Assembly: GCA_039029915.1 (NCBI GenBank)
Contig: JBCCFD010000035.1
Coordinates: forward strand, 1-30,305
Direction: 5' to 3'
Length of the DNA: 30,305 nucleotides
From: Chloroflexota bacterium
GTDB lineage: Bacteria > Chloroflexota > Anaerolineae > Promineifilales > Promineifilaceae
The notes under the pieces were generated by a model. That model had not been told where the DNA came from and did not search any database. It worked only from the letters and a program-made list of their open reading frames with translations. The translations under genes and the position numbers were made by a program. Positions 7,173 through 30,006 of this stretch are shown in pieces. How positions within the stretch are numbered: the stretch's first letter is position 1; every line of letters begins with the position of its first letter.

Positions 7173-7409
7173 TCTCGAAATTTAGATTATGTTTATTAAA
7201 ATGGAAAGATAAGGTGGATATTGGGTATTTTCCGGTATGCACCAATCTTTGTGTTTATTGAGGAATTTTTCTGGAGGTTTTTCGATGTTTAAGCCGTTTG
7301 ATTAGATTTATGATACTGATTTGAGCTTTCAACGGCCGTTTCCCCGACGATGCTGCTTCTAGCAAAGATTCCGCCAAAATCTTGTCAATTGGAAATCGCT
7401 ATAGAAAAG

Positions 7410-7452
7410 CAAAAGGCCAGACGTTTCCGCCTGGCCTCAGTGTATTCAGCAA
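7410..7452 (-). terminator. Rho-independent terminator-like hairpin, functional on the minus strand
   Basis: Minus strand reads TGAGGCCAGGCGGAAACGTCTGGCCTTTTGCTTTTCT: a GGCCAG/CTGGCC stem followed by a T-rich run. The + strand reading lacks the T-run. Confidence 0.4.
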
Positions 7453-7765
7453 GTTACCTGTCAACTGATTGGGTGCCGCCAACACCTTTAACAGTGCCTC
7501 TTTAGTGAGGAGGGATTTTTTTGTCCCAAGGTAGCTCACTAGCTAAGTAAGAGAATAACATAGGCAGGCGACCCTGTCAATGGTGCAATCCGTCGTTGAA
7601 TCAGGTTATTTTGTGCTGCTTATATATGTGAAAATCATTACGTATGTGAGAGAGAAAATGGGCAGTTTTTTGGTTTTTACCGAGTAAATATCACATAACC
7701 AGCCTGTTTTTTCAAGATACCTAGTGAGATTCCCCTAAATCTCTTACTGGCAGGAAGCGTATGCC

Positions 7766-9028
7766 TTGTCAACGTCACCTAGCCAGCTTTTGCCCCAACA
7801 AAGTGAGATTTCGCTTGAGGTAAAAGAAGCGCAACAAAAACTTTTAGCGTTGCGCAAACAGATTTCTCAACAACCCAATATGTCATCATTTACAAATGAT
7901 GGCATACCTTCCTCATGTGCTACTCCTTTAGCTGAGAAAGTGCAGGGTTTGCCGGCTCATTTGGGGTGGGGGTCGCAGAACGTGCGTCGTGTTTTACCAC
8001 AATCGCATCCCCAAGATGAATCGGGTGGCCCTTTGGTTGTTGATTGGCCCAGGAACAATAAGCCGACGGACAATGAGTCAACGGCCGTTTCTATTCCTAT
8101 CTTTCCGGATATTGCCCTTTCCTTATTAAAAGAAAAGCAGGTATCAGCAGGGCGAATCTGGTTGCTGTTGCGTCATTTAGACACAAACGGCACGGGCTGG
8201 CTAGAAATTGACGAGGTTAAACATCAGTTAACCAATAAGCAGTCACATACCCGTGTTTGCGGTTGGCGACAGATGAGAAACTTGCTGAATCAAGGGGAAG
8301 GGCTTTTTTGGAAGCGAGCCAACGGCCGTATATGGCTCTGTTCGCTACCCAAAGTGGCCCAAGCTTTGAAAATAAATCGCTTACATACAGATTCCGTCTT
8401 ACTCCCACTGAACATAGTGTTGGCAAAGATAGGGACGCTTCGGGCGCACCTATACGCGACTTTTCACAGCGGGCGAACGGAATCACATCAAGATGGTTCC
8501 AAGAATGGCCAAGCGCCAATCGCACGAGCTACGATTCAAGCGATGACACAAATCAGCCCTAGAATTCAACGGCTCTATGAACGATCAGCAAACGTTTTGA
8601 ATCAATCACATTTTTGCATTGGTGCCTCATTTTCTGAAACATCTTTTAAAGAAGCGGCGTGGCAACATGGCCCAGCTGCTTTTCGATTCAAAGATACAAA
8701 GGGATTACAGGGCAAAGCAGGATGTGAATATGTTGCTTGGCAGATGCCAAATAGCTATGCAGGACCGCATCAAAGACAGAGTAAACGACAGCGTAAACGA
8801 ATCAACAAAAAATTGGTTGACCTATTAAATAAAGGGATAGTGGGGAACGATCAATTAATGAGAAATCGTGCTGAGTCGACTCAGTTTGAGAGACAGTATT
8901 TTGCAAACGGCCGTTTGGCGCACAAAGCGTTGCGTTACAGAAATCAAAAGCCCATTTATTGTCCAAATCAACAGGCAAAAGGGTTCTGGTTTGAACTTAC
9001 GATTGGGGGCGGTAAAGGTCGGAAATAA
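7766..9028 (+). CDS. Hypothetical 420-aa protein; TTG start at 7766 with AGGAAG 8 nt upstream, or ATG at 7880
   Basis: Long open frame containing three ACGGCCGT copies. No motif I can assign. The C-terminus is basic (KRQRKRINKK). Confidence 0.5.
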   Translation: MSTSPSQLLPQQSEISLEVKEAQQKLLALRKQISQQPNMSSFTNDGIPSSCATPLAEKVQGLPAHLGWGSQNVRRVLPQSHPQDESGGPLVVDWPRNNKPTDNESTAVSIPIFPDIALSLLKEKQVSAGRIWLLLRHLDTNGTGWLEIDEVKHQLTNKQSHTRVCGWRQMRNLLNQGEGLFWKRANGRIWLCSLPKVAQALKINRLHTDSVLLPLNIVLAKIGTLRAHLYATFHSGRTESHQDGSKNGQAPIARATIQAMTQISPRIQRLYERSANVLNQSHFCIGASFSETSFKEAAWQHGPAAFRFKDTKGLQGKAGCEYVAWQMPNSYAGPHQRQSKRQRKRINKKLVDLLNKGIVGNDQLMRNRAESTQFERQYFANGRLAHKALRYRNQKPIYCPNQQAKGFWFELTIGGGKGRK

Positions 9029-9076
9029 TGATCCCCCATTTAAAGGGATTATTCAATTAATGTTATTATTTGCTGT

Positions 9077-9979
9077 ATGACACTTGAAATCTATACCATC
9101 GACTTAAATTACCAAAATACACCGGAAACAATTGGTTCTTATCTCATCTTAGGCAGTAGTGACCCTATTCTTGTCGATACAGGACCAGCTTCCACATTAG
9201 AGAATCTCAAAGTTGGACTTAGCCAATTTAATTTAGCTCTAACTGATATTAAGCATGTTCTTGTAACCCATATTCATCTTGATCATTCTGGTGCTGGTGG
9301 GCAGTTAGCTGAAGCAGGAGCAAAACTATATGTTCATCATGTAGGGTATCCTCACTTAGTTGATCCAAGTCGATTAATTAAGAGTGCCACCCGCATTTAC
9401 GGTGAAGAAAATATGGGAAAGCTCTGGGGAACGACAATTCCCGCGATTGCTGAACAAGTAACGGCCGTTGAAGATCAACAAACCATCACAATCGGTGATC
9501 TCCAGTTTATTTGTCATGATACCCCGGGACATGCATGGCATCATATGGCGTATCAGCTAGGCGATAGGTTGTTTACTGGAGACTCAATTGGAAATCGATT
9601 GGGAAATCGACCGTATACTGTTTTACCAGCACCGCCACCTGAATTTAAACTTGATATTTGGCAACAAACATTAGAAAAAATCAAAGTAATTAACCCAAAA
9701 CGCCTATATCCAACCCATTTTGGACCGATTCTTGAAGCGGAACCGCATATAGAGACGTTTAGCCAATTGCTCAATGATGCCTCAAATTTAGTGCTTGAAG
9801 CGCTTAAGAAAGGGACGCCACGGGATGAAATTGTTGAGCTGTATAAAGCATTTGATATTGAGCGTGGAAAAAAGCTAGGCATGTCAGACGGTGAAATTCA
9901 CCAATACATCGTTTCGAATCCACTGCATATGTCGGTTGATGGCATTATTCGATATTGGACGCGGAAGGGTGTCGTTTAA
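9077..9979 (+). CDS. MBL-fold metallo-hydrolase
   Basis: HxHxDH motif HIHLDHSGAGG and downstream His/Asp ligands (DTPGHAWHH). 300 aa. Confidence 0.8.
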   Translation: MTLEIYTIDLNYQNTPETIGSYLILGSSDPILVDTGPASTLENLKVGLSQFNLALTDIKHVLVTHIHLDHSGAGGQLAEAGAKLYVHHVGYPHLVDPSRLIKSATRIYGEENMGKLWGTTIPAIAEQVTAVEDQQTITIGDLQFICHDTPGHAWHHMAYQLGDRLFTGDSIGNRLGNRPYTVLPAPPPEFKLDIWQQTLEKIKVINPKRLYPTHFGPILEAEPHIETFSQLLNDASNLVLEALKKGTPRDEIVELYKAFDIERGKKLGMSDGEIHQYIVSNPLHMSVDGIIRYWTRKGVV

Positions 9980-10023
9980 ATCATAGGCTAAATACATTGT
10001 TACAAAAATAACCTTTACTTTTG

Positions 10024-10184: not shown

Positions 10185-10285
10185 TTATTAAAGGAACTTA
10201 TGTACCAAGTACTAAACCAAAACGGCCGTTTCAGTTTAACTTTTAGGATTTTATTCAGCATGAGTTTATAGAGGGTGCTTCTGTC

Positions 10286-12457
10286 TTAGATAGTACCAAT
10301 TGCTGGGGCAGTTTCAGCTAATGAGGGGATGCGATCTAAGGGGAGGCTTAGTTTGACACAGGTATATTGTTGATACACGCTGTCGATAATGATTTCCCCG
10401 CCAATAACAGCCATCATGGTTGAATGAAGAGCGAGGCCTTGCCCAGATCCTTTGGATTTGGTGTTTGAACTGATGCCCATGCCGTTATCCTCAATGGCAA
10501 TGATTAACTTTTCATCAAGTACGGCTGAGATGGTTAATGTAAACGGCCGTCCTAGCTTTTGTTCTGCGCCATACCGAGCGGCATTTCGGACCGCTTCCCG
10601 GCTGGCATAAAAAAGCACTTCAGCCGTTAAAGATGGCATCTGCTTTAGCGTTTCTTGGGCCGTTGGCTCGATATTCCAAATAATTTGGTCAAATGCATGG
10701 GCTAAATCATTTTCTACTGCTCGCTTTAGGGCAGGTAAGAGACCTAAGCGCACCACATCCGGGGCAGACGTCGTTGGCATATTGCGTAAGAGGTCTGATA
10801 TTTGGCGGTGCGCATCGGTTAATGTGGTTACAGCATCAGAGACGTGATTGTTGGTTGTTGCTTCAGCGCCTAAAGTGATGAGAGCCGTCTGGATAGTGGG
10901 CAAAATATCATCATGAAGGACACGTCTTGTTTGTTGGTCTATTACTTGGGTTTGGGTTAAACGTTCACGCTGGAGAGCCATCAGGCGCTGGCTCATAATC
11001 CCGCTGGCCTGTGTATCAATGAGACGTTCGCCAACAGCGCGAGCAATTTCCATTTCTTCTTGTGTGTAAACACCCCCAGCTCGTTTTTCGCCAAGCAGCA
11101 GCACGCCAATGAGCCCCCGCTCACTCCACAGCGAAATGGCCCAGGTGGCACCCGAGTAAGTTTGCTCGGATACCGGCACAGGAAACACATTTGGCGAGGT
11201 GAACTGATTCATTAAATTGTTAAGTGGAGGCAGTTTGGGGACAAGGCTATCTGGGAAGGCTATCGGCGGTCCGGTTAAGGCAGACATTGGGCCTAATGCG
11301 GCAAGATACGCCATTTTGGCCTCAAGGACCTCATCACACAGCACTTTGAATGGCCCCGCAATATTAACTTCTTGTGGCGTCGAGCTTGTCAGGAGCTGCT
11401 CGTAGAGGTGTTGACTCAGGATAAACGGCCGTAAATTGTCCATAAACCGGTCTCTTTCCACGTAGGAACGCCAGCTTACCAAGGCAAAGAAAAAGGTCAT
11501 TAAGATTGTTGCCAATAGAAGACCATAAATATTTCTAAATCGAAGCCCTCGAACGGCACCAATGACAAAGCCATAGCTCATTGCTAAGATAACAACCCTT
11601 TGCCAATGCTTGAATAAACCGCCGCGAGGCAGCGTCTTGCCAGTGAAAACCTCATAGGAGACCACCGCCTGTCCTAGCATAAAAATAGCCACAGCAATAA
11701 CTGACGATATGATGAGGTCAATGGTAATAATTAGTTCCTGAGACTCAGCATAAATATCTACAAACGAGCGCCGAAATGTGTCTTCAACTATCCAGAGCAT
11801 AACGCCGGTGACAAGCAAGCTAACCACAAGGAGCGCTACGGCCGCTCGAACCAGCCAGGGGTGGGCTCTCTGCCGAGCACGGCTACCCATGATCCGATTA
11901 GACGGTGCAGGCTGGCGCAAAGCGTCTACGGAGAGACCAAAACAGGCTAAGACGTAGATTGAGTACCCAATCGCTAAGATTGGTACGCCAAAAATAGTTG
12001 AACGAATGGTTCGACGGAGAAGTACAAAGTCGCCGGGGGGGGAGGCAATCATCAACACACCAGCAAAAAGACTAATCAGACCGCCCATTAAAATGAGAAT
12101 GATGATGTAGAAAAAGAGTTGATGCCGTTTTCGAAGCGGAGGATTGGTGACCCAGAAGCCCGAAAACCAAAGAATGATGATGTACCAAGCAAACGGTAGC
12201 AAGGTCGTAGGGATAAGCCCCACCGTCCACCAGAAGGTCATGTTGCGTACAGTAAACTGGTTGACGCCCAGACCTAATATTGCTGAGTGACTCACAAAAA
12301 AAGCACCACCCAGCAAAAGACCGCCGGTTGCTAAATAAACGCCCCAATTGCGATGCTCGGCGTTGAGAATGACTGTTGCACCAAGCCAGAGCAGGAGAAT
12401 TGTATTAAAAATGGAGATGGCCATGCTGGCCCAGTTTAAAAAGATGCTGTTTGTCAT
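10286..12457 (-). CDS. Sensor histidine kinase, NarX-like HisKA_3 type, with a large N-terminal multi-TM sensor domain
   Basis: About 330 aa of hydrophobic helices, then an H-box LHDDILPTIQTALITL and a HATPase_c region (IEDNGMGI, GSGQGL). Confidence 0.8.
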   Translation of the reverse strand: MTNSIFLNWASMAISIFNTILLLWLGATVILNAEHRNWGVYLATGGLLLGGAFFVSHSAILGLGVNQFTVRNMTFWWTVGLIPTTLLPFAWYIIILWFSGFWVTNPPLRKRHQLFFYIIILILMGGLISLFAGVLMIASPPGDFVLLRRTIRSTIFGVPILAIGYSIYVLACFGLSVDALRQPAPSNRIMGSRARQRAHPWLVRAAVALLVVSLLVTGVMLWIVEDTFRRSFVDIYAESQELIITIDLIISSVIAVAIFMLGQAVVSYEVFTGKTLPRGGLFKHWQRVVILAMSYGFVIGAVRGLRFRNIYGLLLATILMTFFFALVSWRSYVERDRFMDNLRPFILSQHLYEQLLTSSTPQEVNIAGPFKVLCDEVLEAKMAYLAALGPMSALTGPPIAFPDSLVPKLPPLNNLMNQFTSPNVFPVPVSEQTYSGATWAISLWSERGLIGVLLLGEKRAGGVYTQEEMEIARAVGERLIDTQASGIMSQRLMALQRERLTQTQVIDQQTRRVLHDDILPTIQTALITLGAEATTNNHVSDAVTTLTDAHRQISDLLRNMPTTSAPDVVRLGLLPALKRAVENDLAHAFDQIIWNIEPTAQETLKQMPSLTAEVLFYASREAVRNAARYGAEQKLGRPFTLTISAVLDEKLIIAIEDNGMGISSNTKSKGSGQGLALHSTMMAVIGGEIIIDSVYQQYTCVKLSLPLDRIPSLAETAPAIGTI

Positions 12458-12487: not shown

Positions 12488-13222
12488 TTATAAAGACCAA
12501 CCGACCCATTCCCCTCGCTCGTCCATAACGTGAGGATTGCCGTCTTCATCCCAGTGGATGAGTTGCCCAGCATGAACAATAATCGCAACGCGGGTGCGGG
12601 CTACTTTTTCGTCGGTGGTGGTTTGATTAAGTCCCCAAGCCGTATAAATTTGGCCGTTAATACGGCTAATAGTTCGCTTGTCGCGGAAACCCATGCGGCT
12701 AGCAATGTGCTCGTTACTCATGCCAATGGCGAGCATGCAGGCTACCTCGCGCTCATTGGGCTCGAGCAGGTCCATTGGGGCGTGCTCATCTTTGTGGCGT
12801 ACTTCTTGAACGCGGGTTTCGATGTCGGCGTCAATGAATGAACGGCCGTTAACGGCATCCTGTAGCAGCGGCACAATGAGCTGTGGCAAAAGATAATTCG
12901 ATTTCCGGACATAGGCATAATGACTCAAAATACCAGCCCGACGAAAATCCCGATAGTAATTATCGTCATCTTGGATGGAGTAAAAGACGACGGGCATTCG
13001 GGGGAATTCACGGCGAATGGCAACGGCCGTTTCAATACCATTGAGCTGTCCAGCCAGCTGTACATCCATCAGGATGACTTCCGGTTGCTGCTCAATGCAG
13101 TACTCTATGGCCGCTTCGCCCGTATCAAATTCATTGACGACTTCGATACTTGGAATGGCTTCAAAACCAGCCTTAAGTGCTGGTCGTAACTTCATGTTGT
13201 CTTCGACGATTAGTAATTTCAT
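12488..13222 (-). CDS. Response regulator, NarL/FixJ family (REC + LuxR-type HTH) with a ~50-aa C-terminal extension
   Basis: MKLLIVEDN...ILMDVQL (REC Asp pocket), then LEPNEREVACMLAIGMSNEHIASRMGFRDKRTISRINGQIYTAWGL (GerE/LuxR HTH). The cognate kinase lies 30 nt downstream. Confidence 0.8.
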   Translation of the reverse strand: MKLLIVEDNMKLRPALKAGFEAIPSIEVVNEFDTGEAAIEYCIEQQPEVILMDVQLAGQLNGIETAVAIRREFPRMPVVFYSIQDDDNYYRDFRRAGILSHYAYVRKSNYLLPQLIVPLLQDAVNGRSFIDADIETRVQEVRHKDEHAPMDLLEPNEREVACMLAIGMSNEHIASRMGFRDKRTISRINGQIYTAWGLNQTTTDEKVARTRVAIIVHAGQLIHWDEDGNPHVMDERGEWVGWSL

Positions 13223-13300: not shown

Positions 13301-13625
13301 CCCCATTATTTGATTTGTAGTTAAACAGAAACAGGTTATTTGAGGTATTTCAAAAAAGCTTTCCGTTTTCTCAGTGAATAGAGATGAATCCACATAATTC
13401 TGTTCATTTTTATTCACATAAACCCAAACGCTTGCGATCTGGAAATATTTTACGTCCAATCGTCAAGCACCCAAGTGCGTTATCAAACGGCTTTAAATGG
13501 TGGTGCTTTTGTCATTTTTTTTATATTGTAACGTCACATAAGTGTTAATTGCTGTAGGTTTGAAAGGTCGTTTTCATTTTTGCAAGGTTGTATTGTTAGC
13601 TCAAATCATTTATGCGGAGATACGA

Positions 13626-14102
13626 ATGAATCTTTCAAACCACTCTTTCAATTTAACACAGCGGTTTTTTAGCGGAACCCACCTTAAAAAATTACTGTTT
13701 GTTTTTGTATTAGGTATTGTTAGTCTTGCTTTGTTTCCATATGGCGTGCTGGCCGAAGAATCAAGGATATTTCGATTTATTATCTATCGAGTCTTTGATT
13801 CTGAATGGTCTCACATCGTTGGTCACTTTGGGATGTTTAGTTTTATTGGAACGGCCGTACTGCTATTCTTTCCTAAGTTGCTCAGCTATCCGATCCTGTA
13901 TTTAAGTGTTATGCTGAACTTGGCTTGGATTCAAGAGTTTTTACAGTTAGCGACATTTAAACGCCGCCCGATCAACTTCGGGGAGCTGAAAGATTTAGGT
14001 ATTGACTTAGCGGCGGCCGTTTTTGTATTTATTGGTTTTGTTCTGTATCGGCATATTAAGAGAAGAAGAAAGCCACAGGTTATACCGACCGGAGACGATT
14101 GA
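13626..14102 (+). CDS. Small polytopic membrane protein, tentatively VanZ-like
   Basis: ATG at 13626 with GGAG 8 nt upstream. The six-frame track starts at GTG 13542. Four predicted TM helices and a basic C-terminus (KRRRKPQ). Confidence 0.5.
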   Translation: MNLSNHSFNLTQRFFSGTHLKKLLFVFVLGIVSLALFPYGVLAEESRIFRFIIYRVFDSEWSHIVGHFGMFSFIGTAVLLFFPKLLSYPILYLSVMLNLAWIQEFLQLATFKRRPINFGELKDLGIDLAAAVFVFIGFVLYRHIKRRRKPQVIPTGDD

Positions 14103-14379: not shown

Positions 14380-15042
14380 TTGGAGGAAGACATGGTTCAA
14401 CTATCGGTGGAAGACGAACGGTATCTTCATAAAGAATTACCTTCATTTGGAATTTTATCAGTTTGGTTTGGTGGATTTTTTGTAACGGTTACGGCCGTGA
14501 CGCAAATTTTGCATCAAACAATTGAGCCCACTTGGGCCCGCCCCCTTATCTTGATCATGGAAATCACCCTGTTAGCCATGATTGTGGGGTCCATCCTTTT
14601 TTTAGCCGTTAATTACCAATTTGGTGTCAGATTAGTGGCTATCCCCCTACTAGTAAACATCGGTACACTGCTTATTGTCCATACGGTTGCCTTCGATCGC
14701 ATGTGGGAAAACGCTCGGTTTTCTTCAATGGCATATGGTTTTGAGCAGGTGGTGGAGCAAATCGAAAATAACGAGATTGCCCCAGCTTCGGATGGGTATG
14801 CCATCCTGCCAGAAAGCTACCGCTATTTGTCTTCAAACGGAGATTTGATTCGGATTGAACGGTCAGGTGCGGATGTTTTGACGGTGCTATTCTTTGCAGA
14901 TTATGAATCAGCTAACCAATTTACGGGATACATTTACCGCTCGGATGGTAGCCCACCACCTTCATCGATGTTTAATGTGGATTGGCGGTTTCTACATCAG
15001 CGGTCTGCAAACTGGTATTTTGTCGTGTCTTATCCACAGTGA
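14380..15042 (+). CDS. Hypothetical membrane protein; start possibly ATG 14392 preceded by GGAGGA
   Basis: N-terminal TM helices, then a soluble domain. No recognisable motif. Confidence 0.5.
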   Translation: MEEDMVQLSVEDERYLHKELPSFGILSVWFGGFFVTVTAVTQILHQTIEPTWARPLILIMEITLLAMIVGSILFLAVNYQFGVRLVAIPLLVNIGTLLIVHTVAFDRMWENARFSSMAYGFEQVVEQIENNEIAPASDGYAILPESYRYLSSNGDLIRIERSGADVLTVLFFADYESANQFTGYIYRSDGSPPPSSMFNVDWRFLHQRSANWYFVVSYPQ

Positions 15043-19415: not shown

Positions 19416-19422
19416 TAATCTT

Positions 19423-21443: not shown

Positions 21444-21803
21444 GCACACTCCTTTCAAATGGTTGATGAAAAAATTTCATAAGCTTGTAAGATTAAATGA
21501 ATGGTTTATTAATTATTTTCGATAGAGTTGATCAAATGCATCGATAGAAAGGGTATTTCCTAAAAATCGGAACATAAAAATTGTAAAAAATTAAGTCAGT
21601 TCCTGTTGCTCTGCAAATAAGTGGCTTGATCAATAGTTTATGACTGTAAGCATGTTGACACGGATTTCGGATCTTTTCATACTCAGAGTGGGTGGTGGAA
21701 AAACTTTGTAACTATTTTTTTTCAAGGCGGTGTTGTGTCTAAAAACAAATTAGGGCGTCAATTACTATAGCAATAAGACCGTATTGATAGGAGTTAATAT
21801 TTA

Positions 21804-22493
21804 GTGACTCATAAAATTTTAGCAGTTGACGATAGTGAGCATATTTTAAGCATCTTAGAAGTTATCCTCAATCAAGCTGGTTATCATACTATTTTATCTG
21901 ATAGCGGAACAAAAGGTTTAATTCAGTTCCAAGATGAAAAACCAGATTTAGTCATCTTGGATGTGAATATGCCAGAAATGAATGGCTGGGATGTTTGTAG
22001 AAAGATTCGGGAAGTTTCTGAAGTACCAATTATATTCTTAACAGCAGCTCACGTTTCAATTGAAGATAAAATTCAGGGATTTGATTTAGGAGCAAATGAT
22101 TACATTACTAAGCCGTTCCATCAAAAGGAATTTTTGGCAAGAGTTCGAGCAAATCTCCGAATTTCACCAATGCTCCAAAATCAGCATGTTTATGATGATG
22201 GCTACTTAAAGGTTGATTTTATTGAGCGGTGTGTATCCTGCGATAAGAAGAATATTGATTTAACAGAAAAAGAGTTTGGCTTGTTGCGCACCCTTATCCA
22301 ATCACCAAATCAAACTGTGACAAATGAAGTTTTATTTCAAAAGGTTTGGGGGTATCCTGAATCATTTGATCCGAACTATGTCCGAATTTATACAAGCTCT
22401 CTTAGACGAAAAATTGAGCCCGACCATAAAAATCCTGTCTATATTTTAACAGACCGCGGTCGGGGGTATCGTTTTATATCTAACCAGGAATAG
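21804..22493 (+). CDS. OmpR/PhoB-family response regulator (REC + winged helix), orphan
   Basis: ILAVDDSEHIL...LVILDVNMPEMNGWDV and a C-terminal LTEKEFGLLRTL...RGRGYRF. GTG start with TAGGAG upstream. Lower GC (~36%) than its neighbours. Confidence 0.8.
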   Translation: MTHKILAVDDSEHILSILEVILNQAGYHTILSDSGTKGLIQFQDEKPDLVILDVNMPEMNGWDVCRKIREVSEVPIIFLTAAHVSIEDKIQGFDLGANDYITKPFHQKEFLARVRANLRISPMLQNQHVYDDGYLKVDFIERCVSCDKKNIDLTEKEFGLLRTLIQSPNQTVTNEVLFQKVWGYPESFDPNYVRIYTSSLRRKIEPDHKNPVYILTDRGRGYRFISNQE

Positions 22494-22556: not shown

Positions 22557-23654
22557 TTACTCTGATTTGAGGGCTTGAATCAGGGAATCAACATCTCCCT
22601 TAATTAACTCAAGCAATCGAATATATTCTGCTTTTTCCACTGCAGAATGCCCTTTGCTATCGAATTTTGCCAGGTGGGTTCTGATGAAGCGAAGATAGTC
22701 TAAATTATCACGTTGCTTATTTGAGGAAGAGGACTGGGCTTCCGAATCCCCCTGCCCTACTGATGGCAACGGCCGTATCTCTTCAATTTCCTCTTCAGCA
22801 AGCCCCCCTACTGCAGGTTCTTCTTCTTGGGGTGGGGGAGGTTGACGCAGGAGCCGTATCACCTGAGCCACTGTCGAAGTTGGACTGTCTTTTAAATAGC
22901 GGGCAATTTGGGTTCCCTCAGCATCACTGATAGTGCCAGCTTCTCGCTCGCGAACTAGGGCCCGTTGATGAGCGGTGCTGAGACCTTGATAAACGCGTGA
23001 CTCACGTTCGGACATGGTGCCTGAACGAATATTTTCCTGAAGCGCTTCATCTAACTTCAGGACGCCAACCAGTTGGGAAACCCGTTGACGAGACATACCT
23101 AATCGATCGCCCACTTTTGCCCAAGTAATCGTTTTGCCCCACGGTTCTTTCGATTGGATATTTTCAGCTTTTGCGGTAGCTAATTCCTCTTCCATCAGCT
23201 TCTTAAGGCGCGTGAGCCCAATAGCTCGATCGACATCATTTAAATCTTCACGCTGCATGTTTTCCACAAGCTGACGCACAAAGCGAGTTACTTCATCATA
23301 ATTGCGTCGACGCACGATGGCTGGAATGGTATCAAGACCGGCCAGCTTTGCTGCTCGCCAGCGTCGCTCACCGTGAACAATCACATACTGCCCTGGAGAC
23401 ACTTCAGTGACCTCTATTGGCTGGATTACCCCATCTTGCCAAATACTGTCACTTAAATCTTTAAGAGAGTCATCGACAAAGGTTTGACGTGGCTGAAGCC
23501 TGTCTGGCTGGATGGCGTCAATACGCAATGCTAACAACTGTAAACCAGATGATTGCTCAATATCATCAGCAGATGAGAAGAGTTGGGCTAGGTCTCCGCT
23601 TTTGGGGCGGACTGGTTGGGCTAGATTTACTTTAGGGCGTTTCTTTTTTGGCAT
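22557..23654 (-). CDS. parB: ParB/Spo0J-type partition protein with an extended C-terminus
   Basis: ParB box VHGERRWRAAKLAGLDTIPAIVRR and an HTH (LGMSRQRVSQL). Begins 3 nt after the parA stop. Confidence 0.85.
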   Translation of the reverse strand: MPKKKRPKVNLAQPVRPKSGDLAQLFSSADDIEQSSGLQLLALRIDAIQPDRLQPRQTFVDDSLKDLSDSIWQDGVIQPIEVTEVSPGQYVIVHGERRWRAAKLAGLDTIPAIVRRRNYDEVTRFVRQLVENMQREDLNDVDRAIGLTRLKKLMEEELATAKAENIQSKEPWGKTITWAKVGDRLGMSRQRVSQLVGVLKLDEALQENIRSGTMSERESRVYQGLSTAHQRALVREREAGTISDAEGTQIARYLKDSPTSTVAQVIRLLRQPPPPQEEEPAVGGLAEEEIEEIRPLPSVGQGDSEAQSSSSNKQRDNLDYLRFIRTHLAKFDSKGHSAVEKAEYIRLLELIKGDVDSLIQALKSE

Positions 23655-23657: not shown

Positions 23658-24440
23658 TTAGCTCCCTAATACAAGCTCTTTGGCAATCGATTGGTACGCT
23701 TTCGCCCCCTGTGTGTCAGGTGCATAGCTAAGAATGCTTTCCCCGGCCACAGCACTTTCTGCAAATCGGACTGAGCGCCGAATAATTGGTTCAAAGATGC
23801 GAATGTCATTCCCATACTGCTGCAAGATGGCATCATGTATATCTTTTGTGAGGGTAGTTCGCGTATCGGCCATTGTGAGTAAGATGCCTTCAATTTGTAA
23901 TGAGGGGTTGAGCTTCTTTGTGCGCACTGTCTCTATGCTTGACATGATCATGGAAGCACCTCGAGCTGCTAAATATTCTGTTTGGATGGGAATCAGAACA
24001 CCCGTGGCCGTTGTTAATGCATTGATAACGAGAAGACCTAGGGAGGGATTGCAATCAATCAAAATATAGTCATAGTATGGTTTGATGTTTTCTAAAATTG
24101 TGGAGAGCACGCGTTCTCGACTGAGGGTATTCATCAAAGAAAGCTCGATCAGGCTGAGTTCAGGTTGCGAGGGGAGAATGTGAAATCCTTCATCAGTTTC
24201 ATAAACGGCCGTCATGGTATCATAACGGGTTCCATCCATTTCAGCTTTAAAAATATCATAGACTGTTGGGTTAACATGCTCGGGGTCAATGCCACAATGT
24301 TGTGTTAAATTCCCTTGTGCATCTAAATCAATGGCAAGAACGCGCTGTCCAAGCTGGGCAATGCCAGCTGCTAGACTAACCGTCGTTGTCGTCTTGCCAA
24401 CACCACCTTTTTGCATGGCAACTGCAAGGATTTTTGTCAT
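23658..24440 (-). CDS. parA: ParA/Soj-type partition ATPase
   Basis: Deviant Walker A KGGVGKTTT. Start set at MTKILAV with GAGGAG 7 nt upstream; the track ORF starts 5 codons earlier at TTG. Confidence 0.88.
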   Translation of the reverse strand: MTKILAVAMQKGGVGKTTTTVSLAAGIAQLGQRVLAIDLDAQGNLTQHCGIDPEHVNPTVYDIFKAEMDGTRYDTMTAVYETDEGFHILPSQPELSLIELSLMNTLSRERVLSTILENIKPYYDYILIDCNPSLGLLVINALTTATGVLIPIQTEYLAARGASMIMSSIETVRTKKLNPSLQIEGILLTMADTRTTLTKDIHDAILQQYGNDIRIFEPIIRRSVRFAESAVAGESILSYAPDTQGAKAYQSIAKELVLGS

Positions 24441-24470
24441 CTGTTTTCTCCTCAATTAGCAATCGTCGTT

Positions 24471-24659: not shown

Positions 24660-25520
24660 ATGAGCAATATTGTTTCGTATGAAGATTATGAAGTGCGTCG
24701 AGTGTGGGTTGAGGATGAGCAGGGAAACGGCCGTTGGTACTTTGCAGTTGTTGATGTCATCGAGCTACTCACCGACAGTAAGAAAGTGCGTCAATATTGG
24801 CTCAACATGCAGCAGCGGTCGATCAAAAAGGAAGGCGTTGATCTAAAAGATAATTGCCTCAAAATTCGATTGAAGCACCGCAATAATCGATCATATGAAA
24901 CCGACTGCGCAGATGTCGAGTGGCTTTTCAGAATTATACAAGCCATTCCGTCCCCCAAAGCAGAACCCATTAAACAGTGGTTAGCCCAATCTGGTCGCCA
25001 GCGACTGGAAGAAGAGAATGATCCAGATTTAACCCTCAAACGAATGCGACAATCTTATCTTGATAAAGGGTACTCAAAGGATTGGGTAGAGTCCCGTATT
25101 CAGGGCATTGTGACTCGCAATGAGTTAACGGATGAGTGGAAGCAGCGGGGTGTCGAACCACGGAAGTTTGGTTTCTTAACTTCTGAGATTTCTAAAGGCA
25201 CCTTTAATATCAAAATTAGTGAGCATAAAACATTTAAAGGGCTAAAGAAGCGGGATAACCTTCGTGATAACATGACCCGGCTTGAGCTGCTATTTACCAT
25301 GTTAGGGGAAGAAGCCACGGCCGAAATTGCCCGAACAGATGACGCCCAAGGATTTGGTGAAAATTTAGAGGCGGCTAAGAAAGGGGGTCAGGTGGCTGGT
25401 GATGCCCGTCGTTTGTTGGAGGCTCAAACGGGCAAGCCGGTTCTAAGCTCTAAAAACTTTCTAGATGTGGGGCAGGAAAAACCATTACTTGAAGATGGTG
25501 ATGAGGATGTGCCGTTTTAG
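24660..25520 (+). CDS. Bro-N domain protein, DNA-damage-inducible protein D (DinD)-like
   Basis: N-terminal Bro-N-like segment, then YWLNMQQRSIKKEGVDL...WLFRIIQAIPSPKAEPIKQWLAQ...KDWVESRIQGIVTRNELTDEW, as in DinD/BRO-family proteins. SD AAGGAG 8 nt before the ATG. Confidence 0.6.
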   Translation: MSNIVSYEDYEVRRVWVEDEQGNGRWYFAVVDVIELLTDSKKVRQYWLNMQQRSIKKEGVDLKDNCLKIRLKHRNNRSYETDCADVEWLFRIIQAIPSPKAEPIKQWLAQSGRQRLEEENDPDLTLKRMRQSYLDKGYSKDWVESRIQGIVTRNELTDEWKQRGVEPRKFGFLTSEISKGTFNIKISEHKTFKGLKKRDNLRDNMTRLELLFTMLGEEATAEIARTDDAQGFGENLEAAKKGGQVAGDARRLLEAQTGKPVLSSKNFLDVGQEKPLLEDGDEDVPF

Positions 25521-25678: not shown

Positions 25679-25712
25679 AAGGCTTTGCATACTTCGCAAA
25701 GCCTTTTTTTAT
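25679..25712. terminator. Bidirectional rho-independent terminator AAAAAAGGCTTTGC-ATACTTC-GCAAAGCCTTTTTTTA
   Basis: 10-bp perfect stem flanked by A-run and T-run. Sits between the convergent Bro-N and htrA-like genes. Confidence 0.8.
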
Positions 25713-25804
25713 AACTATTTTTGTCTTGTTCCGTGCCGTGAGTGAAATTTAGTGCAACGAACTGCCTACTTTAAATAAAACAACAATCATAAACTGCAGA
25801 ACAC

Positions 25805-27043
25805 TTAGCCTGTGGGTCGGGCCTCAAGAAGAAGCGGAATTGTGATTTGTTCGCCATTGCGAATTACGTTGAGGTTAATCGTCTGCCCCACTTGCGTTTG
25901 TTGAACAAGATAGCCGAGTAAATCTTCAACTGTTGTAACTGGTGTGCCATCGATGCCAATAATAATGTCACCATTCCCATTAGGGCTGCCAACTAAACCG
26001 GCTCGTTGTGCTGGACCCCCGGCAACAACATCTGCCACTACGATACCACCTTCGATGTTAAGACCCAGTTGGGCAATCCCTTCCGGGGTCAATGCCGAAC
26101 CAGAGATACCAACCCAAGGTGTTGAGGCACTACCATTTTGAATGAGCTGAGGGGCAATGGCTGCCACAATGTTTGAAGGAACAGCTAACCCAATGCCAGA
26201 TGAACCGCGTACTGGTGACTCAATCGCTGTATTGACCCCTATCACATTGCCATAGATATCTAAAAGTGGTCCCCCTGAGTTGCCAGGATTAACGGCCGCA
26301 TCCGTTTGAATGATGTCAGGAATTTGGAACTGAGAGTTGCCCGGGAAGGTGCGGTCAACGGCCGAAATAATACCGGATGTCATTGTGTTTTGTAGGCCAA
26401 ACGGGCTGCCTAATGCAATCACAATTTGACCAACCTGAACAGCTCCTGAATCCCCCAGAGGTATTGGTTGTAAATTAGCCTCATTTGGATTGACGCGAAC
26501 AACAGCTAAGTCTGAGCCGGGATCACGGCCCACAAGCTCGGCGTCTAAGACAGTGCCGTCAGCTAAGCCAACAGCAATCTGCTGTGCGCCCTCGATCACA
26601 TGGTTGTTCGTAATGATATGGCCGTTATTGTCATAGACCCAGCCTGAGCCCTGTCCTCCATCCGTTAAAATAACAACAACAGATGGGTTTAAGCGAGCAT
26701 AAAGGTCAATAAAGGCTTGCTGTTGAGCCGCAATGGCTTCAAATCCTACAGGAACTTGAACGACTGGTGCTGGCTGAATAGGGGCAATTTCTGTTTCAAT
26801 AACAGGTGCCACTTCTTCGGGGACTACCTCAACGGGTGTTGACTCAACAACTGAGTTTTCTTCAGGCTCAGCCACGGCCGTTTCTGGCTCAATCAGTTCT
26901 TCAGCAACCGTGGGTAAAATCTCAACGGCCGTATCAACTGGTTGGCTAGCAATAGAAGATAAACCTACCCCACCACATGCGGATAAAATAAAAATGAGAC
27001 CAACTGCAAATGTAAACCAAAAATAGCGATAAGAACGGGTCAT
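25805..27043 (-). CDS. HtrA/DegP-family serine protease (trypsin-like domain + PDZ), secreted or lipoprotein
   Basis: Start at MTRSYRYF with GGAGG upstream. Signal/lipobox ILSACGG. Catalytic motifs TNNHVIEGA, DLAVVRV and GNSGGPLLD (Ser). A C-terminal PDZ follows. Confidence 0.8.
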   Translation of the reverse strand: MTRSYRYFWFTFAVGLIFILSACGGVGLSSIASQPVDTAVEILPTVAEELIEPETAVAEPEENSVVESTPVEVVPEEVAPVIETEIAPIQPAPVVQVPVGFEAIAAQQQAFIDLYARLNPSVVVILTDGGQGSGWVYDNNGHIITNNHVIEGAQQIAVGLADGTVLDAELVGRDPGSDLAVVRVNPNEANLQPIPLGDSGAVQVGQIVIALGSPFGLQNTMTSGIISAVDRTFPGNSQFQIPDIIQTDAAVNPGNSGGPLLDIYGNVIGVNTAIESPVRGSSGIGLAVPSNIVAAIAPQLIQNGSASTPWVGISGSALTPEGIAQLGLNIEGGIVVADVVAGGPAQRAGLVGSPNGNGDIIIGIDGTPVTTVEDLLGYLVQQTQVGQTINLNVIRNGEQITIPLLLEARPTG

Positions 27044-27503
27044 TGTACCTCCACAGATAAAATGGTTTGAAAACAAGCTGACTATTCCATGAAAATGAGC
27101 GGGTCAAAGCTTGGTCTGCTAAACGCCGGATGTGGGATATGTAATCAGCTTGCTTTCTGTAAAATCTTAATTTCAAATATGGACACAGTATGGCTAAAAG
27201 TCGTAAACTAAATGTTATGTGTGACTGAACTTTGCTTAAAAAAATCCGACTTTTCTGAGACCCAAATTAAAAGTGAGTTGAAAAAATGAGGGAGTATGAG
27301 TTGTGGTTAAAAAATGTTTGAAAATTTTGTAAAATATGTCAAAAAGACAAATCGACGAAATAAAGATTTGTTGCTACATTAAAACCGCGACATAAGCACC
27401 CTTCGTGTAGATGTTTCACGGGAAACAATGGTGCGAATATCTTGTTCTTGAGGCCATCAAAGCAGCTAAAAGCACCAATAAAAACAAAGGCTCCGACAAA
27501 ATT

Positions 27504-28181
27504 ATGACCTACTCACTAAAAAATATCGTTCCTTGGGGGCGTACCTTTGACGAGTATCAAGCGATGTTTGCTTTGACTGATGATGACCTGACCAAGGCGA
27601 TCTTAGGCTGCGCAGATGGTCCAGCTAGCTTTAATGCAGAACTGACGGCCAGAAACGGTCGTATTGTTTCCACTGACCCGCTCTATGCTTACAGCAAGGC
27701 CGATATTCAGCAGCGCATTGACGCTATTTATGATGAAGTGGTTGAGCAGGCTCGCCAAAATCAGGACCAGTTTGTGTGGCAGCATATCCCCTCGGTTGAG
27801 TCATTAGGTGAGCTTCGCATGATGGCGATGTCTCGCTTTTTGGCGGATTATGAGGCTGGGAAGAAAAACGGCCGTTATCAAACGGCTAGCCTACCCCACC
27901 TACCTTTTGCAGATAATCAGTTTGATCTGGCGCTTTGCTCACACTTTTTATTCTTGTACAGTGAACAGCTTTCAGAAGAATTTCACGATCAAGCAGTCAG
28001 AGAGCTTTTGCGAGTCGCTCATGAAGTGAGAATATTCCCTCTACTCGATTTAACCGCCTCCCCTTCCAAGCATCTCAATCCCATCATGCAAAAGCTCAAG
28101 AAAGAGGGGCATCAAGTAGACATTTTAACCGTATCTTATGAATTTCAGAGAGGCGGCAATCAAATGTGCCGTATTTCTTGA
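27504..28181 (+). CDS. Class I SAM-dependent methyltransferase (small-molecule type)
   Basis: Motif I ILGCADGPASF and post-II LPFADNQFDLALCSHFLF. No DPPY/NPPY or PCQ/ENV DNA-methyltransferase motifs. Start taken at MTYSLKN; the track starts at 27411. Confidence 0.65.
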   Translation: MTYSLKNIVPWGRTFDEYQAMFALTDDDLTKAILGCADGPASFNAELTARNGRIVSTDPLYAYSKADIQQRIDAIYDEVVEQARQNQDQFVWQHIPSVESLGELRMMAMSRFLADYEAGKKNGRYQTASLPHLPFADNQFDLALCSHFLFLYSEQLSEEFHDQAVRELLRVAHEVRIFPLLDLTASPSKHLNPIMQKLKKEGHQVDILTVSYEFQRGGNQMCRIS

Positions 28182-28403
28182 AACAAATATTTACATTTTC
28201 CGTATAAAGATGTAATGTGTGTGGCGAAATGGTGTAATTAGACCGAAGAGAGCAAGTTGCCCTAATAAAATTTCCTAAGTAAATTCCACATCGCCAACCT
28301 GCTTTATCTCAAGATTTTTTGTGAGACCGACAAATTACAAAGAATCAATTACCAAATTACCAGCTATCCTATATCTTAAAAACCAAAAATCCTCCGTTGA
28401 TTG

Positions 28404-28443
28404 AAGGTAGAGACTGGTTCATGACGAGTCAGTCTTTGTTTTT
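28404..28443 (+). terminator. Terminator-like hairpin GAGACTGGTTCATGACGAGTCAGTCTTTGTTTTTA directly upstream of the SPFH gene RBS
   Basis: AGACTG/CAGTCT stem plus a T-rich tail. Could terminate the MTase transcript or act as an attenuator. Confidence 0.35.
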
Positions 28444-28476
28444 AATTATATTTTGATCAAATCCTAGGAGGATCAT

Positions 28477-30006
28477 ATGGGGTCACTACGCTCAGCAGTC
28501 AGAACGGCCGTTGATGTTGCCCAATCAGATGAATTTCAGCAGTTCGCTATCGACATGCGCGATTTTATTTCTGCGCGTCAAGAGGGCGGGTCATCCAGTA
28601 CCGAAATTACTCAAATGTCAGCAACCATTGACGATGTTGCTGAAGTCATAAACCGGAGCTTTTCTAAAGATGATGGCCAAGGTGGGGAAGTGACCAACAT
28701 TATCTCCCCGGTGGTCATGCCAAAGGCGGCTGGCTCTTACTTTAGAGCACTTTCGCTTCCTGTTATGATGATTATTATTGGAGGTATAGGCTATGTGGCC
28801 ACTGGTATCATTCCGGGCTCCCTCCAATCGGCACTTTTTGGTGTTCACTATTGGCTTCTTGTGATTGCTTTTGCAGGATTTAGCGTATGGCGCAGCCGAA
28901 TTGTGATGGTACCAGACGGCTGCCAAGCCTTAATAACAAAGTTTGGTAAGGTTGAAGAAGTGGTTGGGCCTGGACGAAAATGGTTAGGCTTCCACCCCCG
29001 TCGTAAGGTGAGCTACATCGTTAATGTCACCAAAGCATACCCCTACAATGCCCCTATCCGGGAAGCACCGACCCAAGGTCGAATCAACGCCTCTGTCGAC
29101 CTTTTCCTCCAATTCCGCATTGAAGATCCCCAAGAGTTCATTTTTACCCTTGGTGGTGTGAATGGGTTCTCAGAGAAACTACAAAATGCCATCAGCGAAG
29201 TCACCCGTGCCCTGATTTATGCGCAGCGGGCCGAAGATATCTATGACCTAGTCGGGGAAAGCACCAAAAGCGTGCTCGAATCGCTCAATAAGCAGTTTTT
29301 ACCAGCAGTTCGCTTTGTAAATGCCAATATTACGCATGCAGAGCCATCTAGCCGCGAGTATCGTAAGGACTTAGCCTCTCCTGAGATGGTAAAGGTAGCC
29401 AAAGAAGCCTATACCTATCAATATGAGCTAGAACTTCGTAAAAACCAAGATGAAGGTGAACTCAATAAAGATTTAGCGGAACTTCGTGAACAGCTTTCAG
29501 GGATTCGGGCTGAAATTGCCACTCATCAAGCGCGGATTGATACCGCTCGCGAAAAAGCGATCAATCAGGCGAATGCATACGCTCGTCAGCTACTTGTCGA
29601 AGCAGAGAGTGAAGCGAAAGCGAATGCTGCCCTTCTAGAGGCGCAGGCACTGGATATTCGCACCGTGAATAGTGCTTTCTATCATGAGATTCTTGAATAT
29701 CGTTATCAACAAGAGATTTTAGACCGCATTGAAGGGGTTTCAGATAAATTGCCACAGGTGATCAATATGGGTTCCGCAGAGGATAACCATGTGGACTTCA
29801 TGGCTGTTGCCAAGCAGATGATGGGTATTGATGGTGCGCCTCTCTACAACAGTGCCGATATTGAATCGATGCGCACACGAATTAAAGATATTTCTGGGCG
29901 AATTAAAGAGCGAGCTAAAAAGCTTGCCCAAGAAGAAGAATCAGAGGCGATCGCCATCGCTGAAGAGATGCTCCCCTCTGAAACAAAACCCAATAAGGAG
30001 GCCTAA
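28477..30006 (+). CDS. SPFH/band-7 protein with a long C-terminal coiled coil (flotillin-like), 509 aa
   Basis: SD AGGAGG before the ATG. TM segment, then an SPFH core (VMVPDGCQALITKFGKVEEVVGPG...) and a heptad-rich, Glu/Ala-rich C-terminus. Confidence 0.75.
   Translation: MGSLRSAVRTAVDVAQSDEFQQFAIDMRDFISARQEGGSSSTEITQMSATIDDVAEVINRSFSKDDGQGGEVTNIISPVVMPKAAGSYFRALSLPVMMIIIGGIGYVATGIIPGSLQSALFGVHYWLLVIAFAGFSVWRSRIVMVPDGCQALITKFGKVEEVVGPGRKWLGFHPRRKVSYIVNVTKAYPYNAPIREAPTQGRINASVDLFLQFRIEDPQEFIFTLGGVNGFSEKLQNAISEVTRALIYAQRAEDIYDLVGESTKSVLESLNKQFLPAVRFVNANITHAEPSSREYRKDLASPEMVKVAKEAYTYQYELELRKNQDEGELNKDLAELREQLSGIRAEIATHQARIDTAREKAINQANAYARQLLVEAESEAKANAALLEAQALDIRTVNSAFYHEILEYRYQQEILDRIEGVSDKLPQVINMGSAEDNHVDFMAVAKQMMGIDGAPLYNSADIESMRTRIKDISGRIKERAKKLAQEEESEAIAIAEEMLPSETKPNKEA

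Follow-up and report, generated by a model that had tools for sequence, protein, structure and literature searches.

A highly iterated palindrome of the HIP1 kind, built on a CGGCCG core, in Promineifilaceae-like Chloroflexota

HIP1, the highly iterated palindrome (HIP) GCGATCGC, has remained without explanation in cyanobacterial genomes since 1993, and all HIPs described so far are cyanobacterial. For every one of them a matching methyltransferase exists (PMC4390886), and selection acts on the copies of HIP1 (PMC5861425). Natural transformation rises more than 100-fold when HIP1 is methylated (bioRxiv 10.1101/2024.09.10.611283), and several proteins annotated as components of type IV secretion systems, linked by the authors of that work to DNA uptake, co-vary with the abundance of HIP1 (bioRxiv 10.64898/2026.06.24.733823). 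Alternate cyanobacterial HIPs (GGGATCCC, TCGATCGA, GGCGCC, rCCGGy, GCsGC and CAGGCCTG) are lineage-specific replacement words, some of them only 5-6 bp long. The present analysis concerns contig JBCCFD010000035.1 of a Chloroflexota bacterium, analysed over its whole stretch of 30,305 nucleotides (the window), and the 8-base palindrome ACGGCCGT that recurs along it. Comparison of the window with related genomes shows that ACGGCCGT is a HIP of a Promineifilaceae-like Chloroflexota clade.

The window holds 30 exact copies of ACGGCCGT, all within positions 7332-28511, at 1.2 per kb and with a mean spacing of 730 bp across that span. The original prediction, made from the DNA letters, had placed 30 copies between 7332 and 28511 against about 0.2 expected; the recount gave 30 against 0.23, and dinucleotide-preserving shuffles yielded a mean of 0.23 copies and a maximum of 2. 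Over the 25.3 kb outside the rRNA operon, the observed/expected (O/E) ratio is 129 under base composition and 176, 114 and 34 under first-, second- and third-order Markov models, which bears out the proposed enrichment of the order of 100-fold. Only a model that includes the 6- and 7-mers of the word removes the excess, which makes the octamer as such the unit. The runner-up among palindromic octamers, AAGCGCTT, lies far behind with 4 copies (11-fold). As is typical of HIPs, ACGGCCGT is therefore the most over-represented G+C-rich palindromic octamer, with an O/E ratio of tens to hundreds and a density within about 0.5-2.5 per kb. Its core, CGGCCG, occurs 37 times against 3.0 expected in the same 25.3 kb, flanked by A and T in 30 of the 37 cases, while GGCC outside this core stays at chance level. 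Single-mismatch variants, predicted to number at least 12, total 14 across the window and 11 once the rRNA operon is set aside, against about 6.3 expected; an enrichment of merely twofold means that specificity for the exact word is sharp. A longer form, AAACGGCCGTTT, occurs five times. The 14-mer GAAACGGCCGTTTC does occur three times, as had been claimed, with starts at 19140, 20125 and 20827, the positions first given for it (19141, 20126 and 20828) being those of its inner 12-mer. Likewise, the HIP1 word GCGATCGC occurs once, at chance level, although at 29947 and not at 29945.

Several other palindromic hexamers are scarce in window 5001-30305: AGATCT is absent against 7.5 expected, ACTAGT and ACATGT occur once each against 7.5, and GTGCAC, GAGCTC and CCATGG are absent against 4.7 each. 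Restriction avoidance by other systems could account for these missing hexamers.

The distribution of the word was followed in syntenic loci fetched around homologues of the window's radical S-adenosylmethionine (radical-SAM) protein, as samples of about 20 kb per genome. In nine syntenic or related genomes ACGGCCGT is present at 1.3-2.2 per kb, and the individual loci, with the identity of their radical-SAM protein to that of the window where recorded, are as follows.

L085 (91% identical): 11 copies in 6.8 kb
L086 (77%): 26 copies in 14.0 kb
L087 (74%): 29 copies in 13.7 kb
L088 (69%): 27 copies in 21.2 kb
L089 (Candidatus Leptofilum, 2.3-Mb contig): 45 copies in 21.2 kb
L090 (GCA_020634455.1): 45 copies in 21.2 kb
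L159 (GCA_016710325.1): 46 copies in 21.2 kb
L004: 8 copies in 6.3 kb
L002: 3 copies in 3.5 kb

Pooled over 10 assemblies (155 kb, GC 43-54%), there are 263 copies against 2.2 expected, compared with 12 against 19 expected in 77 control loci of other bacteria (534 kb, ParA about 40% identical). Since the loci come independently from ENA, NCBI, Logan and JGI, an assembly artefact is excluded. The host, an uncultured Promineifilaceae-like Chloroflexota, departs from that of all described HIPs: the 16S gene carries AGCGGAGCGTGTGGTTT, which we take to be a Chloroflexi-type signature (recognised through primer GNSB-941F), and the relatives are Promineifilaceae or Ardenticatenaceae/Anaerolineae. The nearest ParA proteins in GTDB species genomes belong to metagenome-assembled genomes (MAGs) of an Anaerolineae (88%), a Candidatus Promineifilaceae (73%) and an uncultured Ardenticatenaceae (72%); the radical-SAM homologues are named Ardenticatenaceae, Anaerolineae or Candidatus Leptofilum, and Leptofilum is classified as Chloroflexota; Ardenticatenia; Promineifilales; Promineifilaceae. 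Judged by eye, the window 16S gene (3370-4877, minus strand) departs from what we take to be the universal primer sites, with CCTGCGGGTAGCAGCAG at 341F and GATTAGAAACCCCGGTATTCC at 785/806; given these deviations in the sequence, amplicon surveys may under-detect the lineage.

Several lines of evidence support the view that ACGGCCGT is maintained at the DNA level and not at the protein level. As had been proposed, copies occur in all three frames, on both strands and in intergenic DNA: 27 of the 30 lie within open reading frames (ORFs) of either strand, where they read T-A-V (16), N-G-R (6) or x-R-P-F/L (5), and three are intergenic; over the whole clade the frames divide 103/77/56. The flanks of the window copies are mutually unrelated. 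Across the 21 window ORFs, Thr-Ala-Val is spelled ACG GCC GTN in 16 of 17 occurrences, against about 8% expected from a codon usage in which ACG makes up 23% of Thr codons and GCC 33% of Ala codons, and Asn-Gly-Arg is spelled AAC GGC CGT in 6 of 8. The tripeptides are themselves in 7-9-fold excess (TAV 17 against 1.8 expected, NGR 8 against 1.1), and their permuted forms show no comparable excess, the highest being VAT with 6 against 1.8. Together, spelling and excess indicate that a DNA word has been imposed on the proteins and not the reverse. In ParA, for example, the window, L086, L087 and a further relative, L003, have T-A-V with the word, while L002 and L004 have S-A-V or S-A-I without it.

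Copies arise through base substitution and not through repeat insertion, as shown by codon-level alignments of window ORFs with their orthologues, in which only 1 of 86 site comparisons touches a gap. This agrees with the earlier view that the copies, with their differing flanks, do not form one repeat family. Presence in all frames and on both strands, in coding and non-coding DNA, without shared flanks or indels, is the pattern known from HIPs. Once present, copies are retained at orthologous positions far beyond control octamers (identical octamer at the orthologous position, binomial P):

L085: 8 of 10, controls 14.3%, P = 6e-6
L086: 12 of 17, controls 6.1%, P = 1e-11
L087: 7 of 13, controls 6.2%, P = 5e-6
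L088: 9 of 15, controls 3.9%, P = 8e-10
L089: 4 of 12, controls 3.0%, P = 3e-4
L090: 6 of 15, controls 3.3%, P = 5e-6

In the comparison with L086, identity is 0.88 in the core, 0.65 in the flanks and 0.675 overall, so that the effect is limited to eight bases. Amino-acid identity is about the same in motif codons and elsewhere (0.79/0.70, 0.73/0.69 and 0.49/0.53), whereas among conserved residues codon identity reaches 0.80-0.86 in motif codons against 0.39-0.53 elsewhere (for example, 0.86 against 0.43). The conservation excess sits at synonymous sites and not in the protein, and, as in HIPs, it exceeds that of control octamers independently of protein or codon preference. Copies once present are thus shown to outlast the surrounding synonymous sites, imposing Thr-Ala-Val, Asn-Gly-Arg or Arg-Pro on the proteins, and the codon, synonymous-site and orthologue tests all agree with the DNA-level maintenance first suggested. 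Retention is accompanied by turnover: relative to L086, 12 copies are shared, 5 are found only in the window and 11 only in L086. Some window-only copies, such as that at 20830, face a quite different sequence in four relatives, and this copy is accordingly a lineage-specific gain.

The copies are listed below in window coordinates and without strand, the sign after each ORF being that of the gene, together with the relatives that share them, the one-mismatch variants and the rRNA operon.

7332-28511: span with all 30 exact ACGGCCGT copies
7332-7339: intergenic, between 6153-7028 and 7766-9028
8081-8088: ORF 7766-9028 (+), T-A-V
8322-8329: ORF 7766-9028 (+), N-G-R
8907-8914: extended AAACGGCCGTTT, ORF 7766-9028 (+), N-G-R
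9461-9468: metallo-beta-lactamase-fold ORF 9077-9979 (+), T-A-V
10222-10229: extended AAACGGCCGTTT, intergenic, convergent genes on either side
10543-10550: histidine kinase ORF 10286-12457 (-), G-R-P-F
11425-11432: histidine kinase ORF 10286-12457 (-), L-R-P-F
12842-12849: response-regulator ORF 12488-13222 (-), N-G-R
13023-13030: response-regulator ORF 12488-13222 (-), T-A-V
13851-13858: ORF 13542-14102 (+), T-A-V; position common to L085, L086
14491-14498: ORF 14380-15042 (+), T-A-V; position common to L085, L086
15370-15377: SPFH/Band_7 ORF 15295-16128 (+), T-A-V; also L085, L086; core only in L003
15421-15428: SPFH ORF 15295-16128 (+), T-A-V; L085 only; other residues in L086, L003
16113-16120: SPFH ORF 15295-16128 (+), K-R-P-L; also L085
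17827-17834: radical-SAM/helix-hairpin-helix ORF 16658-17875 (+), K-R-P-L; exact in L086, one-off in L085, core in L003, L006, L007
18456-18463: PD40-like ORF 18345-19415 (+), T-A-V; also L087
18741-18748: PD40-like ORF 18345-19415 (+), T-A-V; also L085, L086, L087
19143-19150: within 14-mer GAAACGGCCGTTTC, PD40-like ORF 18345-19415 (+), T-A-V; L085 only
19700-19707: DUF6504 ORF 19381-19800 (+), N-G-R; also L086, L087
20128-20135: within 14-mer GAAACGGCCGTTTC, aldo/keto reductase ORF 19923-21458 (-), T-A-V; also L085, L086, L087, L004
20830-20837: within 14-mer GAAACGGCCGTTTC, aldo/keto reductase ORF 19923-21458 (-), T-A-V; window only
22769-22776: parB 22557-23654 (-), I-R-P-L; also L002, L086
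24205-24212: parA 23658-24455 (-), T-A-V; also L086, L087, L003
24727-24734: Bro-N ORF 24660-25520 (+), N-G-R; also L002, L086, L087
25547-25554: intergenic; not conserved in L002
26874-26881: HtrA-type protease ORF 25805-27076 (-), T-A-V; absent from L086
26925-26932: HtrA-type protease ORF 25805-27076 (-), T-A-V; also L086
27868-27875: ORF 27411-28181 (+), N-G-R; gene missing in syntenic L086, L087
28504-28511: Band_7-type ORF 28477-30006 (+), T-A-V; also L086, L087
11838-11845: one-off ACGGCCGC, core CGGCCG intact
14013-14020: one-off GCGGCCGT, core intact
17072-17079: one-off ACGGCCGA, core intact
25317-25324: one-off ACGGCCGA, core intact; TCGGCCGT-type sequence at the aligned L002 position
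26292-26299: one-off ACGGCCGC, core intact
26358-26365: one-off ACGGCCGA, core intact
15572-15579: one-off ACGGTCGT, C-to-T within the core, N-G-R retained
27655-27662: one-off ACGGTCGT, C-to-T within the core, N-G-R retained
20080-20087: one-off ATGGCCGT, CpG to TpG
21216-21223: one-off ACGGCCAT, CpG to TpG on the other strand
26618-26625: one-off ATGGCCGT, CpG to TpG
1-4877, minus strand: rRNA operon without exact copy (23S 1-2718, tRNA-Ala, tRNA-Ile, 16S 3370-4877)

In different genes, some copies form pairs exactly 51 nt apart (15370/15421 and 26874/26925 in the window, 1932/1983 in L085 and 2100/2151 in L087) or, in three other cases, 48 nt apart; both distances are multiples of three, which is expected of copies that read T-A-V in the same frame. 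Among the genes that carry copies, the radical-SAM and helix-hairpin-helix protein (16658-17875), in strict synteny throughout the clade, is related, below the family cutoff, to TIGR03916, a putative DNA modification/repair radical SAM protein; its ORF has no partner gene resembling uracil-DNA glycosylase beside it, and nothing connects the protein to ACGGCCGT. With E = 1e-103, the Bro-N protein (24660-25520) next to parA is a match to PDC-S13, one of PADLOC's candidate defence families. The same slot beside parA holds a P22_AR_N/ORF6C antirepressor-like gene in L088 (17407-18201) and is empty in L089, L090 and L159, which makes it a variable slot. ORF 27411-28181, flanked by the genes for the HtrA-type protease and the Band_7 protein, weakly matches the class-I SAM methyltransferase family Methyltransf_11 and lacks DNA-methyltransferase motifs.

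Across the clade, the primary unit is shown to be the core CGGCCG, with flanks that vary by lineage. In the octamer-bearing lineages, the mismatch falls on position 1 or 8 in 56 of 101 one-off sites; the CpG-to-TpG change at position 2 comes next (15 sites, about threefold), and other internal variants lie at or below expectation. This bias of one-offs to the end positions, with the inner hexamer as the conserved unit, is also a property of HIPs. Around the octamer there is a weak extension of the form (G)(A)A-ACGGCCGT-T(T)(C), with A(-1) in 63% of half-sites, A(-2) in 47% and G(-3)/G(-4) in 41-44%. More distant, sister lineages (L003, L007 and L160, radical-SAM protein 60-64% identical) have few or no ACGGCCGT copies, but carry CGGCCG at 2.5-4.6 per kb, a 7-16-fold enrichment. 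L003 has 64 CGGCCG in 13.9 kb with a AACGGCCG half-site preference, and keeps only the core at 4 of 10 window octamer positions; L007 has 27 in 10.7 kb; and L160 has 64 in 21.2 kb, a single octamer and no flank preference.

No copy lies in the rRNA operon, in 5585-7028 or in the OmpR-type gene (21804-22493), as originally noted; the further suggestion that the ATPase pair at 5585-7028 and the OmpR gene have a different history is not supported. At 1.42 copies per kb, the Poisson probability of finding none is 0.13 for 5585-7028 and 0.38 for the 690-bp OmpR-type gene, which moreover occupies the same slot, from aldo/keto reductase to parB, in six genomes (L086, L087, L088, L089, L090 and L159) and holds a copy in two of five relatives scanned (L086 and L088). 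The AAA_22 protein is similar to ExeA and PEP-CTERM-associated ATPases, and its TnsC match is weak. Accessory DNA also carries the word, against the notion of a different history: an insertion sequence (IS) in L089 has one copy, and an integrated DUF2637-FtsK/SpoIIIE-ParA element (L157:5600-19200, on a 504-kb contig of an Anaerolineae MAG) and the adjacent BrxL/WYL/Cas3-like island together have 39 copies in 22 kb. In the window, ORF 27411-28181, a gene that the syntenic L086 and L087 lack, likewise holds a copy.

When IMG/VR was scanned for pairs of copies lying close together, 65 loci (L092-L156), filed there as viral, were obtained. Of these, 38, at GC 50-64%, reach one copy per kb or more, with a maximum of about 4 per kb; these densities are biased upward because the loci were selected by the motif itself. 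The densest (e.g., L138, L094 and L148) encode an FtsK/SpoIIIE-type translocase, DUF2637, ParA, a helicase and a transglycosylase or M23 peptidase, and no clear virion genes were seen on them. This gene content points to conjugative or integrative elements, and a tailed-phage origin of the best loci was rejected. Two resemblances tie these elements to this Chloroflexota group: an antirepressor-like protein shares 51-54% identity with its counterpart next to parA in L088, and the translocase is 59% identical to a homologue encoded in an Anaerolineae chromosome. A word this frequent in mobile DNA is unlikely to be the target of an active host restriction enzyme; where avoidance or at most neutrality would be expected, it is enriched about 100-fold in chromosomes and in integrated and IMG/VR elements alike.

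The surroundings of the copies show a compositional feature of their own. In chromosomal loci (window 7332-28511, L002, L004, L085-L090 and L157), each half-site has an excess of G and a shortage of C in its 5' flank, so that the top strand is G-rich upstream and C-rich downstream. GC skew is +0.32 at positions -10 to -6, +0.24 at -15 to -11, about +0.1 out to about -40 and about zero beyond -60. It appears in sense and antisense flanks, and is thus not a coding-strand effect; six control palindromic hexamers range from -0.05 to +0.03, and on mobile elements the skew is much weaker (+0.08). An extended hairpin or cruciform was discarded, since per-site complementarity of the flanks is no more than composition gives. 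The length scale of the skew recalls short repair patches, while its direction misfits simple cytosine deamination. In the window, spacing of the copies is also more even than random (coefficient of variation, CV, 0.63 against 0.95, P = 0.005); regular spacing as a general feature was rejected, being significant in the window only. Cyanobacterial HIPs show a periodic distribution on a 10-90 kb scale, whereas the stretches read here span 20-30 kb.

How such a word could be built and held is suggested by a scenario proposed for HIP1. A lineage-specific DNA cytosine methyltransferase, probably an orphan, may recognise the CGGCCG core; the agent would do so as a symmetric dimer in the manner of a Type II-like methyltransferase, and a second requirement would fix the terminal A and T in most lineages. 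The methylated word would then mark resident DNA and be read by a repair, recombination or DNA-uptake function, and selection, possibly aided by methylation-directed repair bias, would raise it to about 1-2 per kb and hold it there. Near-complete methylation at ACGGCCGT and NCGGCCGN would be expected. The Nanomotif supplement records CGGCCG-specific N4-methylcytosine (m4C) and 5-methylcytosine (m5C) methylation in metagenome bins, with no stated link to this clade. By analogy with the cyanobacterial case, we lean modestly towards this scenario as a whole, from methyltransferase mark through reader function to build-up by selection.

Several observations weigh against it. The window ORFs contain no DNA methyltransferase, Vsr-type or restriction gene detectable with Pfam, NCBIfam or PADLOC, and about 200 kb of clade loci contain none that is attributable. 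A regular-expression screen of clade and IMG/VR loci returned five methyltransferase candidates on motif-rich loci and a sixth on the motif-poor L095 (a truncated C5 methylase, two MT-A70, two N4/N6 enzymes and one ORF without family match), and none could be attributed to CGGCCG; the complete N4/N6 enzyme on motif-rich L151 adjoins an MvaI/BcnI-family nuclease and, given this neighbour, probably targets CCWGG or CCSGG. The symmetric G-rich/C-rich flank skew is not predicted by the model, and the even spacing of the window is not significant in L085-L087, L004 or L006. The samples cover about 20 kb per genome, so that 'genome-wide' is an extrapolation, and selection and a strong bias of repair or conversion cannot be told apart on these data.

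The alternatives overlap with this methyltransferase-based scenario and with one another, and the weights given to them are not meant to be exclusive. The copies could be a DNA-uptake or 'self-DNA' recombination signal, comparable to DNA uptake sequences (DUS), uptake signal sequences (USS) or Chi, which is read directly, with or without methylation, and spreads by preferential uptake or recombination; in its downstream step this explanation coincides with the favoured model, and we regard it as a tentative possibility. The density and fold enrichment of DUS and USS cover the 1.2-2.2 per kb and O/E of about 100 found here, and the presence of the word in all frames, where it shapes peptides, its conservation beyond the flanks and its density of up to 4 per kb on integrated conjugative-type Anaerolineae elements fit such a signal, although the mobile-element loci were chosen by the motif itself and their density is biased upward. 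Recent work has connected HIP1, too, with the efficiency of transformation and with the machinery of uptake (bioRxiv 10.1101/2024.09.10.611283; 10.64898/2026.06.24.733823). However, the uptake sequences and Chi sites known so far have an orientation and are not palindromes, whereas ACGGCCGT is a perfect palindrome with only 3 of 30 copies intergenic and no inverted terminator pairs seen, in place of an oriented 9-12-mer; nor, being a palindrome and so without orientation, is it an asymmetric, strand-biased word of the Chi type. That some lineages have the octamer and others the bare hexamer is more suggestive of the specificity of a restriction-modification-type enzyme, and no competence genes appeared in the loci read, where they were not specifically examined.

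A biased repair ratchet, Vsr-like or consisting of methyl-directed mismatch repair tied to a CGGCCG methyltransferase, could instead leave the word as a function-less by-product, by converting near-cognate sequences into it and restoring mutated copies. Gains by substitution only, turnover beside retention (12 shared, 5 window-only and 11 L086-only copies), the presence of the word in all resident DNA including IS, defence island and integrated elements, and a local skew over 10-40 nt, the length scale of short repair patches, are all compatible with it. We nevertheless judge it unlikely: in E. coli, Dcm/Vsr shifts the frequency of CCWGG only slightly, by well under 2-fold, compared with about 100-fold here; internal one-offs are not depleted below expectation, as an efficient ratchet would predict; and amino-acid replacements are forced on conserved proteins such as ParA. 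Elhai's model of HIP1 is of this type (PMC4390886), while the conservation of HIP1 has been considered stronger than neutral replenishment could explain (PMC5861425). It is improbable that the word is bound by an abundant dimeric protein, DNA-binding or nucleoid-structuring, with a role in chromosome organisation. A structural role has been proposed for HIP1 from its periodicity (PMC5861425), and a palindrome with a weak symmetric extension and symmetric flank composition, evenly spaced in the window, would suit such a protein; but that spacing does not extend to the relatives, the flank skew is much weaker on mobile elements, no candidate protein was identified, and the implied number of sites is far above that of known site-specific nucleoid proteins, which have far fewer sites per genome. 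Finally, the notion that the copies are a dispersed mobile repeat of the repetitive extragenic palindromic (REP) or miniature inverted-repeat transposable element (MITE) kind, or result from selection on peptides or codon usage, is regarded as refuted. Its sole support is the threefold recurrence of GAAACGGCCGTTTC; against it stand the unrelated flanks, the lack of indels at copies, the 27 of 30 genic positions, the three different peptides, the intergenic copies, and the use of codons that are not the preferred ones (ACG 23% of Thr, GCC 33% of Ala).

A second, independent system would show the HIP phenomenon to be general and not a cyanobacterial oddity. Neighbouring lineages with the octamer, the hexamer only or nothing provide a natural comparative design, in which gene content set against motif state could reveal the methyltransferase, repair or uptake genes involved. 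As a strong compositional marker, the word is also of practical use in binning these Chloroflexota, which are abundant in wastewater and sediment, and in linking mobile elements to them; it predictably biases their protein sequences through an excess of TAV, NGR and RP. A more far-reaching possibility, which we put forward with considerable reserve, is that Chloroflexota evolved an independent HIP on CGGCCG, served by a dedicated methylation-and-repair or methylation-and-uptake system that marks all resident DNA, conjugative elements included. If so, the 10-40 nt skew would be a trace of mutation left by this machinery as it works outwards from each copy, and comparison of octamer, hexamer and motif-free sister lineages would identify the responsible genes, a question unsettled by 30 years of work on HIP1.

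Several known systems share features with ACGGCCGT. The DUS and USS of Neisseria and Pasteurellaceae have similar density and fold enrichment, are genic with an effect on peptides and are clade-specific, but they are non-palindromic, 9-12 nt long and tied to demonstrated competence and a receptor. Dcm/Vsr in enterobacteria raises a methyltransferase target, CCWGG, through directed repair, with a patch length like that of the flank skew described here; its effect in E. coli is orders of magnitude smaller, and no Vsr or methyltransferase gene was found here. REP/MITE-type repeats resemble the present case as many copies of a palindromic sequence, but they are longer, intergenic and inserted as units with shared flanks, whereas this word is 8 bp, mostly coding and made by substitution. 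Among the alternate cyanobacterial HIPs, one has a GGCC core, like ACGGCCGT, and close lineages differ in their fixed flanks, as octamer and bare-CGGCCG lineages do here; all are cyanobacterial, and in the papers searched they include neither ACGGCCGT nor CGGCCG. A literature search for the exact word ACGGCCGT returned only primer and antibody matches, and Elhai 2015, Xu 2018 and the 2026 preprint on type IV secretion mention no ACGGCCGT, CGGCCG or Chloroflexota HIP, which is not proof of novelty. With HIP1, finally, the palindrome shares an 8-bp G+C-rich form, a density of about 0.5-2.5 per kb and an O/E ratio of 15-300 (PMC4390886; PMC5861425), genic copies in all frames together with intergenic ones, no shared flanks, no indels, and conservation at orthologous positions above control octamers (PMC4390886; PMC5861425). 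Palindromic extensions such as GGCGATCGCC are common in HIP1 (PMC4390886, section 2.4), whose inner hexamer CGATCG is the methyltransferase site and whose deviations are greatest at positions 1 and 8 (PMC4390886, sections 2.5 and 2.6). The differences are the core, CGGCCG in place of CGATCG and hence no GATC, and the phylum, Chloroflexota. The HIP1-like behaviour with a different sequence that was first proposed is therefore upheld: this is a system of the HIP kind with a new sequence and in a new phylum, HIP1-like in every respect tested except that its host is not a cyanobacterium, with no earlier description in the papers searched, and it is the closest counterpart yet to the HIP1 puzzle outside cyanobacteria.

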